Virus record (IMG/VR): IMGVR_UViG_3300033121_002248
Source of the DNA: a virus
DNA: 22,716 nt
Reading direction: 5' to 3' (one strand)
The position numbers and the translations under genes are program-made. This document shows, piece by piece, positions 2,586 to 20,501 of this stretch. The notes beneath the pieces were generated by a model, which made no database searches, was not told where the DNA came from, and was given only the letters and a program-made list of their open reading frames with translations. Positions within the stretch are counted from its first letter, which is position 1. Each line of letters begins with the position of its first letter.

Positions 2586-2947
2586 TGGTGGAGACCATCA
2601 ACTGGCTGGCCGTCACCTTCGACTCTGCGTTCCTCTGGATCGGGGTGATGCTCGGCTACCTCATCGGCCACATCCGCGGCTCGCAGTGGGGGCTCGACCA
2701 CGTGCAGACGCTGGTGCGCGGGCGGAGCGAGGATGGGAAGAAGACCGTCTACGTGCGCCCCAGCAACCTCACGCAGCAGGAGCAGGCGGCGTGGGTGCAC
2801 GCCATCCAGGAGGTGGACCGCGACGCCACGCACAGGCAGATGCTCGGGCTCGAGACGTTCTGCTGCGTCGAGTGTGAGAAGGAGCCCACCTACGAGCTGC
2901 TCTGCTCGCTGTGCATCGCTGATGAGCGCCTGTTCGGGCATAAGTGA
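2585..2947 (+). CDS. small membrane protein (N-terminal TM helix AFLWIGVMLGYLIGHI), C-terminal CxxC..CxxC
   Basis: ATG 2585 overlaps the upstream stop. The hydrophobic N-terminus is evident in the translation. Its last codons (CAT AAG TGA) form a copy of the GGCATAAG motif. Confidence 0.5.
   Translation: MVETINWLAVTFDSAFLWIGVMLGYLIGHIRGSQWGLDHVQTLVRGRSEDGKKTVYVRPSNLTQQEQAAWVHAIQEVDRDATHRQMLGLETFCCVECEKEPTYELLCSLCIADERLFGHK
2937..2944 (+). promoter_or_regulatory. GGCATAAG motif copy 1 (extended GGGCATAAGTGAGGTACGGGC, shared with copy 2)
   Basis: One of 9 same-orientation copies of C/G-GGCATAAG-T/C lying 6-70 nt upstream of + strand start codons, followed by an RBS. See findings. Confidence 0.45.
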
Positions 2948-2951
2948 GGTA

Positions 2952-2972
2952 CGGGCAGTGCTTTCCTGCCCG
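2952..2972 (+). promoter_or_regulatory. stem-loop CGGGCAG-tgctttc-CTGCCCG in the leader of the 2991 gene
   Basis: Perfect 7-bp inverted repeat with a 7-nt loop, lying between the CATAAG motif and the GAGGTGA RBS. Confidence 0.3.
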
Positions 2973-2990
2973 CTACATCAGAGGTGACCC

Positions 2991-3449
2991 GTGAGTGAAA
3001 ACGACAAGGGCTTCGAGTTCCTGCTGAATCGCGACAGCGCCGGAGCGGTCCGGTACGAAGGGGCGATGCCGGAGAATGACGAGCTGCTCTACCTGGTGAA
3101 CATGTGGATCGCGCACGATCCGCGCTGCACACTCGTGCAGGTGGAGCTCATCCCCAGCGAGAAGTACGACGGGGGCAGGAGCGGCAAGATCTTCGTGCGC
3201 CTGCACAGCATGGGCACGCCCAGCTTCACCGAGCACGGCGACCTGCGCGTGCCGGAGAAGTCGATGGGCGAGCTGCGGAGCTGGAACAACGGCGGGGTGC
3301 TCGTGGCCCGCAACTACGCCACCGACGCGATGGCGCGCGCCTTCTTCACCAGTGAGCGCCTGCGCGACCGCGCCCACGCCGACCTCCGCGCGGTCGTGGG
3401 CAGCCTGAAGGAGGTCTTCACGGGCCTCCAGCCCAAGAAGGAGGACTGA
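2991..3449 (+). CDS. hypothetical protein (152 aa)
   Basis: GTG 2991 follows AGAGGTGA. High GC3. Ends TGA overlapping ATG 3449. Confidence 0.55.
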   Translation: MSENDKGFEFLLNRDSAGAVRYEGAMPENDELLYLVNMWIAHDPRCTLVQVELIPSEKYDGGRSGKIFVRLHSMGTPSFTEHGDLRVPEKSMGELRSWNNGGVLVARNYATDAMARAFFTSERLRDRAHADLRAVVGSLKEVFTGLQPKKED

Positions 3450-3820
3450 TGCTCCAGGTCGTGGACCAGCACGGGGAACAGCGGGGCGACGTCGCCGAAC
3501 TCTTCAAGGCGCGCGCGCTCGCGCGCTACGGCTATGAGCGCGCCGCCCTCAGGTACGCGGGGCGCCTCCAGGTCGTGGACGGCAACGAGCACCACGTCGA
3601 GTCGCGGCCAGAGGTGGAGGCGTGGCGGATGCAGCTCCACCACGACGTGCGCGCGCTGGCCCACGAGGGGGCGCAGGAGGCGCTGCGGAAGCGCGGCGCG
3701 CCGCTCCCGGACAACAAGGAGACGTTCCTCATCGAGTGGGGCGGGGAGACCTGGTACGTCCAGTTCTGGGACGGCGAGGTCTTCCTCGCCACCAGCGCGA
3801 CGGTGCGGGCGGGGTGGTAG
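3449..3820 (+). CDS. hypothetical protein (123 aa)
   Basis: ATG 3449 follows AAGAAGGAGG. Coding-like codon bias. Confidence 0.55.
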   Translation: MLQVVDQHGEQRGDVAELFKARALARYGYERAALRYAGRLQVVDGNEHHVESRPEVEAWRMQLHHDVRALAHEGAQEALRKRGAPLPDNKETFLIEWGGETWYVQFWDGEVFLATSATVRAGW

Positions 3821-3848
3821 TGGGTGGAGGGCGCCTGTGGCTCTCCCA

Positions 3849-18259: not shown

Positions 18260-18697
18260 ATGGAGGCTACTTTGGCCAAGATCATCTACGTCGCCGCGGT
18301 GCTGCCCGCGGAGGAGAAGGCGCGGCTCCTGGAGAGGTTCCCGCCCGTGCACATGCGGCAGTTCGGGCACCACTGCACGCTCGCGTTCCGCCCGAAGGGC
18401 GACCACCCCGTGCTGGCGCGGCTCGGCGAGGAGCTCGAGTTGAGAGTGGACGCGCACGCGCGCGACACGCTCGGCCAGGCCGTGACGGTGCCGGGCGCCC
18501 CCTCGGACAACGTCGTCCCGCACATCACGATCAGCTGCGCCGGAGACACGCAGCCGGTCTACAGCAACCAGCTCCTGGCCGAGGCGGAGGCCGCCGGCAG
18601 CTTCGAGCCGGTGGAGCACACGCTGCGCGCCCGCATCGGCGCGTTCATGGACAACGGGCGCTGGGCCTGGTCCCGCGCCGACCTGGAGGCCGAGTGA
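18260..18697 (+). CDS. 2H phosphoesterase superfamily protein (LigT / cyclic phosphodiesterase-like, 145 aa)
   Basis: Two H-x-T-x motifs with hydrophobic context: GHHCTLAF (H38-x-T40) and PHITIS (H88-x-T90). The small size resembles minimal 2H enzymes. The call rests on motifs only. Confidence 0.5.
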   Translation: MEATLAKIIYVAAVLPAEEKARLLERFPPVHMRQFGHHCTLAFRPKGDHPVLARLGEELELRVDAHARDTLGQAVTVPGAPSDNVVPHITISCAGDTQPVYSNQLLAEAEAAGSFEPVEHTLRARIGAFMDNGRWAWSRADLEAE

Positions 18698-19287
18698 ACC
18701 GCATCTACAACCTCGCGCACGTCCCGGACTTCATGCCGCGGACGCTCGCCATCCTCTCTCTGGACGACGCGACCGTCGAGCGACTGCTCTCGCTGCGGAA
18801 CGTCTTCGAGATGACGAAGAAGTTCCAGCACGTCGAGGAGCTCTACGCGCTGGAGATCCATGACTGCACCATCGAGATCGCGTTCGAGACGAACTTGGGC
18901 GACGACCTCGAGCTCGCGGAGAATGCCTACGAAGACTGGGTCGACGCACCGCTCGGCCTCGAGGGCGAAGAGCAGGAGCAGGACGACGACATCGACGAGA
19001 GCCAGCGGTCGTTGTTCGACTCACCGCGCCCCGAGTGCATGACGATGCTCGTCCTCTCCGACGGCGTGAAGTGGGAGTGGTACGAGAAGCACGACGACGA
19101 CCTGTGCTCCACGTCCATCCTGCCGTGGGCCGTCCTCGAGGACGAGCGGAAGGCGGAGCGCTGCGAGAAGTGCGGGACGCCGTATTCGCAGGCGTCCATC
19201 GACGGGGGCCGCTGTCTCGGGAGCGACCCCCACGGGCGCTTCTGCGGCACATCGATCGCCGCCGTCCGGCCGGAGGTGCAGGAGTAG
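18694..19287 (+). CDS. acidic hypothetical protein (197 aa) with C-terminal CEKCG...C cluster
   Basis: GTG 18694 overlaps the upstream TGA. The EGEEQEQDDDIDE acidic run is evident in the translation. Confidence 0.5.
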   Translation: MNRIYNLAHVPDFMPRTLAILSLDDATVERLLSLRNVFEMTKKFQHVEELYALEIHDCTIEIAFETNLGDDLELAENAYEDWVDAPLGLEGEEQEQDDDIDESQRSLFDSPRPECMTMLVLSDGVKWEWYEKHDDDLCSTSILPWAVLEDERKAERCEKCGTPYSQASIDGGRCLGSDPHGRFCGTSIAAVRPEVQE

Positions 19288-19336
19288 CCTGCGGGGGCGC
19301 TCCCCATTAGCGTAGGGTGCAGGCCAGGAGCCCACG

Positions 19337-19786
19337 ATGCCGCGCGCAAAGAAGGAAGCAGCCGTCCCCTCCACGCTGGTCGACGTCGGGTTCGACTTCC
19401 TCCTCGTCGCCGACGCGGCGAAGGTGCCGTCCGGCGCGGCTCGCGGCTACACCTACGACGGTGAGGTCGTGCGCGTCGTCGACGGTGACACCGTGGTCGT
19501 GCTCCTCACCCTCGCCGAGGGCGCGCGGTACCGACACAGCTGCCGCCTCTTCGGCATCAACGCGCCCGAGCACAACACGCCCACCGGTGCGGCATCCAGG
19601 GACTGGCTGACACAGCTCCTGCCCGCCGGCACGAAGCTGCGCGTGGCGACCCACAAGGACGAGGCCGAGAAGTACGGCCGGCTCCTCGGGGTGCTGACGC
19701 TCGCAGATGGGCGCGTGGTCAACGACCTGCTCGTCGAGACCGGCCACGCGCTGAAGTGGGACGGCAAGGGCGCGAAGCCCGTCTGA
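19337..19786 (+). CDS. staphylococcal nuclease (SNase / thermonuclease) homolog (149 aa)
   Basis: VVRVVDGDTVVVLL..RLFGINAPE..EKYGRLLGVLTLADGRVVNDLLVETGHA aligns with SNase [49 protein letters not shown]. Confidence 0.85.
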   Translation: MPRAKKEAAVPSTLVDVGFDFLLVADAAKVPSGAARGYTYDGEVVRVVDGDTVVVLLTLAEGARYRHSCRLFGINAPEHNTPTGAASRDWLTQLLPAGTKLRVATHKDEAEKYGRLLGVLTLADGRVVNDLLVETGHALKWDGKGAKPV

Positions 19787-20461
19787 TCAGGCCCAGGCGC
19801 CGGGGTAGGCGGCGCGCACGCTCGCGACGTCGCCGACGGAGCGGTCGCAGTCCCCGTCCACGCCCGCCACGCGGCCCCAGGCCGTGTACTGCCAGAGCAG
19901 CACGTCGTTGCCGGTCCACCCGGTCGGGATCTTCCCGATGGGCCAGCCCTTGAAGGACTGCGCGCCCTTCTCGGGGTAGCGCGCGAGCCAGAGCGGCCGC
20001 TTCTTGCCGAGGAGCGTGCTCGTCGCGAGGATGGAACCGCCGTGGGAGTTGAGGTGGGCCGTCGTGCTGTAGACGAGCACGGGCACGCCGGTGACGCGCT
20101 CCACCGCCTCGCACCAGTGCACGCCGTCTGCCGCGGTCATCGGGTCCTCCCCGTAGCTCGCCGGCGGGGCCTCGAAGTCCAGCACGCAGAGCGCGCCGTG
20201 CCCGGGCTTCACCGTGTCGAGGAAGACCTTCACCTGTGCGTCGACGCTGAGCTTCTTCGTCGTGCGCGAGAAGTGGTAGGCGCCGAGGCCCATGCCCACC
20301 TGACGCACGAGCGGGGCGCGGGGCGCGAACTTGGAGTCGGCGACGACCTCGCTCGCCTTCATGATCACGAGCTGGATGCCGGCCCCCGCCAGCTTGGTGA
20401 AGTCGACCTGGCTCTGGATGTGGGAGATGTCGATGATGGTGTCGGTGGACGGCACGGGCAA
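19787..20461 (-). CDS. GH25 family lysozyme (muramidase), catalytic domain only (224 aa)
   Basis: IIDISHIQSQVDFTKLAGAGIQLVIMKASE..LGAYHF matches the GH25 signature GIDVSHWQG.IDW..AG..F.IIKATEG..GAYHF. AGGAGG lies 4 nt upstream of its ATG on the - strand. No signal peptide. It is convergent with the SNase gene through a TGATCA stop-stop palindrome. Confidence 0.85.
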   Translation of the reverse strand: MPVPSTDTIIDISHIQSQVDFTKLAGAGIQLVIMKASEVVADSKFAPRAPLVRQVGMGLGAYHFSRTTKKLSVDAQVKVFLDTVKPGHGALCVLDFEAPPASYGEDPMTAADGVHWCEAVERVTGVPVLVYSTTAHLNSHGGSILATSTLLGKKRPLWLARYPEKGAQSFKGWPIGKIPTGWTGNDVLLWQYTAWGRVAGVDGDCDRSVGDVASVRAAYPGAWA

Positions 20462-20480
20462 CCTCCTGCTCGCGGCACCG

Positions 20481-20501
20481 TAGCCTGAGTGGAGTCATAA
20501 G
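20481..20501 (+). promoter_or_regulatory. TAGCC ... GTCATAAG motif copy 9
   Basis: TAGCCTGAGTGGAGTCATAAGGCCCGTGGAGG lies 21 nt upstream of ATG 20523. Confidence 0.4.

Follow-up and report, generated by a model that had tools for sequence, protein, structure and literature searches.

A conserved CATAAG motif as the putative -10-like core of a promoter class, with terminator-like hairpins, in an uncultured large phage

Extended -10, -35-independent promoters of the sigma-70 family include the middle and late promoters of Thermus phage P23-45, and single-element promoters are read by phage-encoded sigma factors such as T4 gp55 (TATAAATA) and phiEco32 gp36 (TAATGTATA). The start-associated sequence (SAS) of Cluster K mycobacteriophages keeps a near-fixed distance of a few nucleotides to the start codon, and the ribosome-binding region is part of it. 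In T4-like phages, promoter-early stem-loops (PeSLs) are composite terminator–promoter cassettes (Arbiol et al. 2010, PMC2839356; Comeau et al. 2014, PMC4122927), the promoters of which are near-consensus for sigma-70 and read TTGACA-N17-TATAAT or TTTACW-N17-TAYWAT (PMC2839356; PMC4122927). Here we analysed a 22,716-nt stretch of DNA (the window) that belongs to an uncultured large phage, the relatives of which have contigs of 182–194 kb carrying rIIA/rIIB, SSB, GyrB, ThyX and endolysin genes. In this phage family the hexamer CATAAG most likely marks promoters of early and DNA-metabolism genes, to judge from its placement and conservation.

CATAAG occurs nine times in the window against 1.04 expected, a count that none of 100 shuffled sequences reached, and all nine copies are on the plus strand; the 5-mer ATAAG is likewise found nine times on the plus strand, at these same sites, and never on the minus strand. 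Word counts against shuffles within the window thus bear out the preliminary description of at least nine same-orientation copies of an enriched motif. The word itself needs amending: the 8-mer GGCATAAG is exact at six sites (2937, 3856, 5570, 6004, 13498 and 14066, all plus strand; 0.06 expected by chance from dinucleotide shuffles), and the other three depart from it, 15479 reading ACCATAAG and both 18246 and 20494 reading GTCATAAG. When both strands were scored with a weight matrix trained on 18 sites from three related phages, with the window sites left out, the top nine matches were the nine window sites (12.3–19.3 bits) and the next match reached 8.5. The two weakest sites, at 18248 and 15481, do not exceed the best match in mononucleotide shuffles (mean maximum 12.4), so their support comes from position and orthologous conservation.

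Six related lineages of metagenomic phages have conserved the motif, at orthologous as well as non-orthologous gaps, and across all seven lineages it persists while the flanks diverge. In 160.5 kb from the seven lineages CATAAG is present 64 times on the gene strand and not once on the other strand, which settles the earlier question of whether related phages share it; bacterial loci of similar GC content hold 0–1 copies per 21 kb. In one relative, the upstream region contains 21 sites across 20.8 kb, and 14 of these fall in a 5-kb stretch of small ORFs; this dense cluster before small ORFs resembles a phage early region.

The extended consensus is G-N-CATAAG-N4-G-T-R. G stands two nucleotides before the hexamer at 61 of the 64 sites, the base seven nucleotides after it is a purine at 58 (27/27 among the first 27 sites), and a T immediately precedes this purine at 37. 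Of 60 CATAA occurrences, 57 have G as the next base and none has T; TATAAT is absent from 147 kb, and CATAAT from the 60 CATAAN sites. A -35 box was not found, the best TTGACA match at 15–19-nt spacing scoring 2.74/6 against 2.62 at random positions. We infer from this pattern a register typical of extended -10 elements that lack a -35 box: G falls at -14 and A at -11, the +1 is a purine seven nucleotides after the hexamer, and C and G take the place of the canonical T's at -12 and -7. Such a systematic deviation from the sigma-70 hexamer would fit a non-canonical sigma or polymerase specificity, in keeping with the earlier suggestion of a host- or element-specific sigma factor. The alignment may have produced this register by chance, given that the bases at -7 (G) and -12 (C) run counter to the best-conserved sigma-70 -10 positions, and the purine signal at +1 could partly stem from Shine-Dalgarno sequences that start there at the short-leader sites (6004, 14066 and 20494), an origin against which the neighbouring positions, only 50–70% purine, count.

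Gaps between predicted genes total 1232 nt, or 5.4% of the window, and all nine copies lie inside them or at a gap edge, as first described for the plus-strand gene train; the reported overlap with upstream stop codons is likewise real at two of them. P1 (GGCATAAGTGAGGTA, 2937–2951, plus strand, as are all promoter-like elements here; CATAAG at 2939–2944; predicted +1 A2951; 19.0 bits) overlaps the stop codon TGA (2945–2947) of gene 2585–2947, and the end of its 8-mer lies 46 nt from the start codon of gene 2991–3449. P2 (GGCATAAGCGAGGTA, 3856–3870; predicted +1 A3870; 19.3 bits), 48 nt by the same measure from gene 3912–4745, has in common with P1 the 20-nt extension noted before. P3 (GGCATAAGTAGAGTG, 5570–5584; predicted +1 G5584; 16.4 bits) is 37 nt from gene 5615–5953. 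P4 (GGCATAAGCGCCGTG, 6004–6018; predicted +1 G6018; 17.1 bits), 16 nt from ATG 6028, heads 15 called genes in tight succession (6028 to 12781), among which no further motif occurs, and a hairpin with CTTTAGCC follows at 12788–12816. P5 (GGCATAAGTCAGGTA, 13498–13512; predicted +1 A13512) lies in the divergent gap 13417–13535, 30 nt from ATG 13536 of a PolX-thumb gene, and when the orthologous gaps from three phages are compared, no block other than GGCATAAG is invariant upstream of the Shine-Dalgarno sequence; the starts used for P4 and P5 follow the gene calls and conservation in the related phage L002.

P6 (GGCATAAGTCCAGAG, 14066–14080; predicted +1 G14080; 18.8 bits) overlaps the stop codon TAA at 14070–14072, stands 22 nt ahead of genes 14096–15424 and is orthologous to the L002 site at 8507. 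P7, a weak variant (ACCATAAGCATCTTG, 15479–15493; predicted +1 G15493; 12.3 bits), lies 70 nt upstream of a major-vault-protein homologue gene (15557–18154); its L002 orthologue is CCCATAAGC, and the aligned place reads CAGAAG in L005 and CAAAAG in L007. P8 (GTCATAAGTTGAGCA, 18246–18260; predicted +1 A18260; 12.8 bits) precedes a 2H phosphoesterase gene for which a leaderless mRNA had been predicted. This prediction finds no support: the ATG at 18260, 6 nt from the 8-mer, is not conserved and the orthologues start at a conserved TTG or GTG aligned with TTG 18272, which lies 18 nt from the 8-mer and after GGAGG (18263–18267). P9 (GTCATAAGGCCCGTG, 20494–20508; predicted +1 G20508; 15.4 bits; orthologous to the L002 site at 14598) is in the divergent gap 20456–20522 after a minus-strand GH25 gene, 21 nt from the genes that run from 20523 to the window end. 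No same-strand transcript can arrive in the two divergent gaps, where the genes downstream of P5 and P9 need promoters of their own.

TTAGCC had been seen upstream of five copies of the motif, and it is there at four (3849, 5996, 15451 and 18234) and as TAGCC at the fifth, 20494; it is, by our analysis, not a promoter box, and looks instead like the tail of a terminator. The word alone is not over-represented (5 against 2.0 expected; 6 of 100 shuffles reached 5). It lies 0–4 nt after a GC-rich hairpin but 3–24 nt from CATAAG, and hairpins without CATAAG carry it too (TTAGCC at 12811, TTAGCG at 19307); these properties make it part of a terminator-like element. A role as -35 element was rejected on the same grounds, namely variable spacing, linkage to hairpins and occurrence without CATAAG. 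Six terminator-like elements were delineated, all on the plus strand. T1 (3826–3854; stem-loop 3826–3846, CA, TTAGCC 3849–3854; -12 kcal/mol, z -0.9) is directly upstream of P2, and T2 (5968–6001; stem-loop GGGGC...GCCCC 5968–5985, T-rich tail GATTTACTTG, TTAGCC 5996–6001) directly upstream of P4. T3 (12788–12816; stem-loop 12788–12808 with a perfect 7-bp stem, CT, TTAGCC 12811–12816; -14.5 kcal/mol, z -1.7), which has an L002 orthologue at 7125, closes the gene run headed by P4, with no CATAAG after it, and is convergent with the minus-strand gene 12811–13005.

T4 (15430–15456; stem-loop 15430–15448, GT, TTAGCC 15451–15456) lies 24 nt upstream of P7, and two paired substitutions, of A-U by G-C and of G-C by C-G (by eye), leave its pairing intact in the L002 orthologue. 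The T5 region (18155–18239; hairpin 18155–18176, a second long hairpin, TTAGCC 18234–18239), between the vault-protein gene and P8, folds at -54.8 kcal/mol (z -3.0), and 0/200 shuffles were as stable. T6 (19293–19312; GGGG-GCGCT-CCCC, A, TTAGCG 19307–19312; z +0.3, weak alone) has no CATAAG after it, and its L002 orthologue at 13791 shows ATTAGCC after a longer stem. For most of the hairpins, stability does not exceed that of their own GC-rich sequence when shuffled (z -3.0 to +0.3), the U-tract comprises only 2–3 U, and a standard terminator scan was passed by one element of the six.

Minus-strand lysis-type genes never have the CATAAG motif and have TANNNT-type hexamers instead. One canonical-looking -10 sequence of this type, GTTACCAT, lies on the minus strand at 13439–13446, 24 nt upstream of the membrane-protein gene 13027–13416, in contrast to the CATAAG class; GTTAYCNN is conserved at the corresponding position of L002, L013, L014/L015 and L020, and the sequence in L014/L015 (GTTATCGG) departs from the TANNNT pattern, which the window, L002, L013 and L020 all follow. 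A TANNNT-type hexamer that precedes the GH25 gene overlaps the TAGCC located ahead of the 20494 copy, on the strand opposite to it. The presence of these hexamers on motif-less minus-strand genes suggests a second promoter class.

Overall, we consider it likely that the phage has a class of CATAAG -10-like promoters combined with hairpin cassettes. GnCATAAG would be the -10-like core of the main promoter class for the rightward early and DNA-metabolism units, with C-A-T-A-A-G at -12 to -7, transcription starting at the downstream purine, usually within G-T-R, and a -35 box not required. Since C is fixed at -12 and G at -7, the motif would probably be read by a sigma factor or polymerase with altered specificity, phage-encoded or phage-modified, or else by the host's own sigma, were the host to have an unusual primary sigma. 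Many units would close with a GC hairpin plus (Y)TTTAGCC, a probably partial intrinsic-type terminator, which where it abuts the next promoter would form a composite terminator–promoter cassette. Enrichment, confinement to one strand and to gaps, conservation across the family, the constant spacing to a purine, the lack of a -35 box and the link between hairpin and TTAGC are observed features; RNA polymerase binding, the +1 position, termination at the hairpins and the kind of sigma or polymerase at work are inferred. The two readings proposed at the outset fared differently: confinement to gaps, co-orientation with genes, conservation in seven lineages and a purine at a fixed 7 nt point to the -10-like element, and a start-associated sequence is not supported, given a distance to the start that varies from 16 to 70 nt and a separate Shine-Dalgarno sequence. 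The CATAAG promoter is most likely a commonplace type of element whose consensus is unusual.

It is possible, if rather doubtful, that the host's unmodified primary-sigma holoenzyme reads the motif, in which case the sites would be true immediate-early promoters like those of T4 PeSLs, and the odd hexamer would stem from an unusual -10 preference within an uncharacterised host phylum and from no phage factor. The geometry of the sigma-70 family is matched by the G at -14, by the A at -11 and by a purine 7 nt away, and A is weakly enriched 19 nt before the hexamer (32/64 sites), but the complete lack of T at -7 among the 60 CATAAN sites does not sit well with such a reader. The dense clusters ahead of small ORFs look immediate-early, and neither the window nor the examined parts of the relatives yielded a gene for a sigma factor or RNA polymerase; the canonical TANNNT hexamers before minus-strand genes of the same phages, however, suggest that the host sigma reads the usual consensus. 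Bacteroidota have primary sigmas with divergent -10 preferences, whereas the vault protein has its closest cellular homologues in metagenome bins of Myxococcota, a phylum that uses promoters of the ordinary sigma-70 consensus.

We regard it as improbable that the motif is the site of a phage DNA-binding regulator or a recombination signal of mobile cassettes, kept for gene shuffling. PeSLs of T4-like phages are proposed recombination points (PMC4122927), the 20-nt extension of P1 and P2 looks as if left by duplication or gene conversion, and the endolysin slot between T and P elements holds non-orthologous genes across lineages; yet the site is asymmetric, occurs once per gap and is always co-oriented with the downstream gene, the fixed purine spacing and restriction to the 5′ sides of genes would be left unexplained, and in PeSLs recombination is secondary to a real promoter. 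A role in RNA, whether in processing, in stability or as a start-associated sequence linked to translation, is likewise improbable, for the strictly sense-strand location in gaps upstream of Shine-Dalgarno and start codon, with the Shine-Dalgarno beginning about 12 nt after the motif at short-leader sites, is set against its presence in divergent gaps without upstream same-strand transcription, the terminator-like hairpins that often precede it and would exclude it from the upstream transcript, the variable distance to the start, a conserved partner that is the purine and not the start codon, and the lack of any matching Rfam family.

Compared with described systems, the proposed CATAAG promoter class resembles extended -10 and phage-sigma promoters in having one conserved 8–9-bp element near -10 without a -35 box, and extended -10 promoters in particular in the G at -14, the A at -11, the ATAA core and the purine start about 7 nt downstream. 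It differs in the fixed C at -12 and G at -7 and in lacking a T at -15 and, unlike the P23-45, gp55 and gp36 examples, serves early and DNA-metabolism genes, not late genes. Like the SAS, CATAAG is a short, asymmetric, conserved motif on the coding strand upstream of many genes, but it has a separate Shine-Dalgarno sequence at its varying distance from the start, and its fixed partner is the purine.

The T and P elements together are, by analogy, PeSL-like terminator–promoter cassettes: short intergenic units of stem-loop and promoter, repeated many times, co-oriented with small early-type ORFs, with both parts in family-specific variants, and flanking slots of differing gene content among relatives, here the endolysin slot. 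The relatives also share rIIA and rIIB with T4-like phages, and a T4-like assignment goes no further than this here, rIIB being 32% identical over the N-terminal third only. Unlike PeSLs, the window sites have no -35 box, their hexamer is CATAAG with G at -7, and the stem-loop tail contains a conserved TTTAGCC; for the recombination role, one variable slot was considered here. As in rho-independent terminators, a GC-rich stem-loop followed by T residues stands at the 3′ ends of gene runs, and also at the convergent junction 12788–12816, but a conserved AGCC follows the 2–3 U in place of a U-tract. The conserved TTAGCC tail suggests either that the cassettes share an ancestor or that the tail is a specific signal.

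Sequence comparison gives strong support to CATAAG as a real promoter-like motif, unusual in consensus and shared across the family, that is coupled to a terminator-like element in which a hairpin is followed by TTAGCC. The repeated motif of the preliminary description holds up in number, strand and placement: GGCATAAG occurs in exact form six times in the window, always on the + strand, against 0.06 copies expected, and the other listed copies are variants (GTCATAAG at 18246 and 20494, ACCATAAG at 15479). Word enrichment gave nine copies of the CATAAG core against 1.04 expected, and the 5-mer ATAAG is found nine times on the + strand and never on the − strand, these nine being the motif sites. 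Every copy lies in or at the edge of a gap between genes, gaps making up 5.4% of the window, and two copies overlap the stop codon of the upstream gene.

The window corresponds to positions 1–22716 of a metagenomic contig from the Logan assembly of SRR32380191 (23,994 nt in all), with a GC content of 69% and about 43 genes by a codon-usage gene call. Nearly all genes are on the + strand and mostly overlap or abut; three are on the − strand (12811–13005, 13027–13416 and 19787–20455). Recognisable products are SSB, a GIY-YIG endonuclease, a PolX-thumb protein, an Exo_endo_phos nuclease, a 2H/CPD phosphoesterase, an SNase-like protein, an 865-aa major vault protein homologue, a GH25 muramidase and GyrB; the remaining scanned proteins gave no confident match in Pfam, PHROG or NCBIfam, the few hits all falling below curated cut-offs. 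Isolated and deposited phages searched at the DNA level with the whole window and with one relative gave no match, nor did a phage collection searched by tblastn with the 493-aa protein of the window, and the rIIB and GyrB homologues gave distant hits only (32–44%). No close relative came out of IMG/VR, GTDB genomes or JGI metagenomes when these were scanned with the vault protein or with the extended 20-nt form of the motif. Relatives were obtained solely from a protein database and contig look-ups, with the vault protein (identities of 73%, 51% and 49%) and the 493-aa protein (64%, 54% and 53%) as leads; they come from the groundwater project PRJNA292723, and contigs of the family include jgi 3300044611 Ga0453738_0000022 (188 kb), one of jgi 3300059473 (182.9 kb) and the 193.8-kb contig carrying P0003. 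Their contigs, of up to about 182–194 kb, carry rIIA-like, rIIB, ThyX, dNMP kinase, HNH endonuclease and endolysin genes, and from these contigs and their gene content we therefore assign the window to the early or replication region of an uncultured large phage.

The vault-protein homologue (15557–18154, +) matches MVP_shoulder with an E value of 1.7e-20, and the gene neighbourhood of its phage orthologues (73, 51 and 49% identical) is conserved. Its next best matches, at about 42–44%, include proteins of Myxococcota metagenome bins (Kofleriaceae, Nannocystaceae) among many unnamed metagenomic proteins, these bins being the source of the nearest cellular homologues; viral vault proteins were reported in a 2023 preprint (10.1101/2023.11.10.566534). 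At 1064–2244 (+) the coding frame changes near position 1500, between an ORF at 1064–1537 and one at 1144–2244. In the latter, PolA is recognisable only by a 27-aa family-A DNA polymerase motif (RGPNLQNIPIRT...), and a homologue of the left-edge ORF (2–859) is annotated DNA_pol_A; the 1064–2244 region could encode a split, frameshifted or highly divergent polymerase. The 493-aa protein (10750–12231, +) has a weak Mrr_cat match. Its homologues of 43–45% identity (loci L016, L017 and L019) lie in bacterial defence islands, not in phages. They are invariably preceded by a sigma-54 activator and a small gene and adjoin type I restriction-modification genes; CBASS-like or PLD and helicase genes are found close by. 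The protein may be a defence or counter-defence gene acquired by the phage.

Related phages share the motif. In 160.5 kb from seven lineages all 64 copies of CATAAG are on the gene strand and none is on the other, and the negative controls, two bacterial loci of similar GC content with homologues of the 493-aa protein and available DNA, hold 0–1 copies per 21 kb. The three relatives with a vault protein (L002, L005 and L007) carry the motif in the orthologous gaps before the PolX-thumb gene, a 77-aa gene, the vault-protein operon and the phosphoesterase gene; it also lies in their non-orthologous gaps, always on the gene strand, and in lineages that have no vault protein (L013, L015 and L020). 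A weight matrix built only from the sites of L002, L005 and L007 ranked the nine window sites as the top nine of both strands together, the lowest at 12.3 bits versus 8.5 bits for the next match. In the orthologous divergent gaps before the PolX-thumb gene, GGCATAAG is the sole invariant block upstream of the Shine-Dalgarno sequence. Neither the huge phages hit with the vault protein (LR756500, 24% GC) nor the IMG/VR contig hit with it (L010, 59% GC) carry the motif, and a literature search for CATAAG as a phage promoter returned nothing relevant.

A 20.8-kb stretch of the L002 contig, upstream of L002 itself (L018), holds 21 CATAAG copies, 14 of which fall in 5 kb made up of small ORFs. Four of the L018 sites (8109, 8798, 8885 and 8977) fall within about 1.4 kb (8100–9500) that has a single small called gene (9091–9270), and may drive small RNAs or unannotated mini-ORFs. 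In L002 itself, a site at 17457 (GACATAAGC) falls within the coding sequence of an HNH endonuclease, 150 nt before GyrB. This copy may be there by chance, or it may act as an internal promoter through which GyrB stays expressed once the homing endonuclease has inserted.

When the 64 sites were aligned on CATAAG, a G stood 2 nt before the hexamer in 61, the 4 nt directly after it showed no conservation, and the fifth, sixth and seventh nucleotides were G (35/64), T (37/64) and a purine (58/64, and 27/27 in the first four phages). These position counts therefore give the consensus G-N-CATAAG-N4-G-T-R. With the purine taken as +1, the hexamer spans −12 to −7 and the G falls at −14, a register equal to that of an extended −10 promoter (G-n-T-A-T-A-A-T), with six of eight positions identical. 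Extended −10 promoters have TG or G at −15/−14 and start at a purine 6–8 nt downstream of the hexamer; here the G at −14 is present (the same 61 sites), and T at the −15 place, in 9 of 64, is not enriched. The −10-like promoter element put forward in the preliminary description is consistent with these alignments, the predicted element being family-wide, in extended −10 register and at a fixed purine spacing.

The −10 hexamer of sigma-70-family promoters (TANNNT) runs from −12 to −7, its A falling at −11 and its last T at −7. The A at the −11 place is invariant in the CATAAG sites; of 60 CATAAN sites, 57 have G as the last base and none has T, and of 64 NATAAG sites, 57 open with C. With G at the −7 place and C at the −12 place, the hexamer does not fit a canonical TANNNT −10. 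TATAAT itself was found nowhere in 147 kb. A sigma-70 −10/−35 promoter has a TTGACA-like hexamer 16–18 nt upstream, and the CATAAG sites have none, since the best TTGACA match at a spacing of 15–19 nt scored 2.74 of 6, at the level of random positions (2.62). Upstream, the one signal, itself weak, is an A placed 19 nt ahead of the hexamer in 32 of 64 sites, and a consensus scan of 19.5 kb gave one weak sigma-70-like site, not related to the motif. Promoters of single-subunit T7-like RNA polymerases are conserved continuously over about 17–23 bp through +1; this type is excluded, as only about 9 nt and G-T-R are conserved and positions −6 to −3 are not. Sigma-54 promoters have GG at −24 and GC at −12, 10 nt apart (TGGCAC-N5-TTGC), and are rejected because many sites have GT or GC instead of GG and the window sites have no TTGC at the required spacing.

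Upstream of the motif, TTAGC(C) is the only recurrent word, 3–24 nt from CATAAG in the window, and this variable spacing tells against its being an upstream promoter box or −35. In four phages every intergenic + strand TTAGC comes after a GC-rich stem-loop, at a distance of 0–4 nt in 12 of 14 intergenic copies (folds read by us). Hairpins are also found with no CATAAG after them, at 12788–12816, where hairpin and TTAGCC end the 15-gene run of the 6004 promoter and converge with a minus-strand gene, and at 19293–19312, where the tail is TTAGCG. Within the family, a perfect stem of at least 6 bp ends 0–5 nt before TTAGC in 9 of 28 + strand copies, versus 2.5% of random positions and none of 10 minus-strand TTAGC copies. 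The hairpins before the vault-protein promoter in the window and in L002, compared by eye, keep their pairing through two double changes. Hairpin stability was mostly no greater than in shuffles of the same GC-rich sequence (z −3.0 to +0.3). Intrinsic terminators consist of a GC-rich hairpin followed directly by a U-rich tract; here the T run after the hairpins is only 2–3 nt long and one of six passes a standard terminator scan. Judged by its sequence, the hairpin–TTAGCC element is probably a leaky intrinsic-type terminator with a conserved tail. In relatives this tail often runs straight into the promoter (CTTTAG-GGCATAAG), and in the window the TAGCC before the 20494 copy overlaps GCTACGGT on the other strand, in front of the GH25 gene.

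Start-associated sequences like those of mycobacteriophages were entertained in the preliminary description as a model for the motif; in Cluster K mycobacteriophages they stand at a fixed short distance from the start codon and include the ribosome-binding region. We reject this reading because the end of the 8-mer lies at a varying distance from the start, 16–70 nt, and a separate GGAGG-type Shine-Dalgarno sequence stands between. The leaderless phosphoesterase mRNA once predicted is not supported either: the predicted +1 of the 18246 promoter is the A of ATG 18260, and this ATG is not conserved, the orthologues beginning at TTG or GTG aligned with TTG 18272 (L/V-A/P-K-I-I/L-Y-V-A), preceded by GGAGG. 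A leader of 12 nt is more likely. The predicted 5′ ends of the transcripts from 2937 and 5570 (2951–2972 and 5584–5606, +) begin with stable hairpins, GGGCAG...CTGCCC and GGGC...GCCC, with z only −1.2 and −1.4, which may be 5′ stabilisers.

The motif yields a predicted transcription-unit map, with nine promoters (P1–P9) and six terminator-like elements (T1–T6), where almost no protein has a recognisable family. P1 (2937) would serve 2991–3820 and be followed by T1; P2 (3856) would serve 3912–5549, up to P3 (5570), which would serve 5615–5953 and be followed by T2; and P4 (6004) would serve 6028–12781, ending at T3. The minus-strand genes at 12811–13416 have no promoter listed. P5 (13498) would serve 13536–14072, up to P6 (14066), for which the predicted unit is 14096–15424 with T4 after it; P7 (15479) would serve the vault-protein gene, then T5, and P8 (18246) the genes at 18272–19287, then T6. 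No promoter is assigned to the genes at 19337–19786, after which comes the minus-strand GH25 gene, and P9 (20494) would serve 20523 to past the window end. GnCATAAG, on one strand only and in gaps, is also a simple tag by which contigs of this lineage can be recognised and oriented.

Before minus-strand genes CATAAG is never found, in any lineage. The 129-aa minus-strand product combines a coiled coil in its N-terminal part with a membrane segment at the C-terminal end, and the GH25 muramidase is an endolysin; we therefore regard these as lysis-type genes. The motif splits two probable temporal classes, rightward early or DNA-metabolism genes and leftward lysis-type genes. GTTAYCNN is conserved 22–27 nt before the start of the membrane-protein gene (window, L002, L013, L014/L015 and L020), and its hexamer fits TANNNT, as TAYCAT/TACCCT, in four of five lineages, the exception being L014/L015 with GTTATCGG. 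On the − strand of the window, TANNNT-type hexamers lie 21–24 nt before the starts of the membrane-protein gene (GTTACCAT, 13439–13446) and the GH25 gene (GCTACGGT, 20477–20484), and may represent a second promoter class. The coexistence of these canonical-looking hexamers with CATAAG, in a sample of one orthologous gene and one other, is a weak argument that CATAAG has a reader other than the ordinary host sigma factor.

If CATAAG is a promoter, the C and G that are constant at −12 and −7 point to a sigma factor or polymerase whose specificity has not been described from model systems, and we consider it an even call that this specificity is phage-encoded or phage-modified. Neither the window, whose proteins were searched against Pfam, PHROGs, NCBIfam and PDB sequences, nor the 20–44 kb fetched from each relative's genome of 180–190 kb held a sigma factor or RNA polymerase gene. 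Given a promoter, direct reading of CATAAG by an unusual host primary sigma factor is less likely, and a smaller share still goes to other readings. A role of the motif at the RNA level is unlikely: it also lies in divergent gaps and shortly after terminator-like hairpins, it stands at a variable distance from the start codon, and an Rfam search returned no family. Neither the fixed purine spacing nor the strict co-orientation with the downstream gene follows from a pure operator or recombination role, and we reject a Chi-like or packaging signal because the motif is confined to gaps. For promoter-like CATAAG we tentatively propose, as a composite that may well fail, that in these high-GC phages of roughly 185–195 kb transcription would have a specificity of its own: a sigma factor or RNA polymerase, encoded by the phage or delivered with the virion, would recognise GnCATAAG with no −35, the two hallmark T's of bacterial −10 boxes being changed to C and G, and a dedicated hairpin–TTTAGCC stop would go with it, and that the cassettes would double as recombination joints that swap endolysin-type genes.

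A phage-specific promoter consensus set in terminator–promoter cassettes is a well-known kind of element. Late (structural, lysis) genes of T4 are served by a promoter that consists of an 8-bp −10 element alone and requires gp55, gp33 and gp45; the CATAAG element is −10-only with an ATAA core and would serve SSB, PolX-like, GyrB, rIIA-like and similar genes, and the lysis-type genes lack it. It is also like −35-independent extended −10 and phage-sigma single-element promoters, although the defining T at −7 of the canonical −10 is missing.

The closest architecture is that of the promoter-early stem-loop (PeSL) cassettes of T4-like phages (PMC2839356, PMC4122927), and by analogy with these a secondary recombination role of the cassettes is possible. 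PeSL cassettes mark indel or replacement boundaries between close relatives; here the comparison covers one slot. This slot, between T6 and P9, looks like a non-orthologous endolysin replacement bounded by cassettes: it holds SNase and minus-strand GH25 genes in the window (19337–20455), a 255-aa gene of no assigned family in L002 (13822–14589) and a VanY peptidase gene in L013 (13473–14216) and also in L015 and L020. A hairpin–TTAGCC element lies 3–24 nt upstream of four of the nine window promoters, and relatives are alike, with TTTAG sometimes fused to GGCATAAG; a stem-loop that adjoins a promoter and is repeated intergenically is thus common to PeSLs and the CATAAG family. The promoter part of a PeSL is a near-consensus sigma-70 early promoter (PMC4122927), whereas the predicted promoters here have no −35, and their −10-like hexamer is CATAAG.
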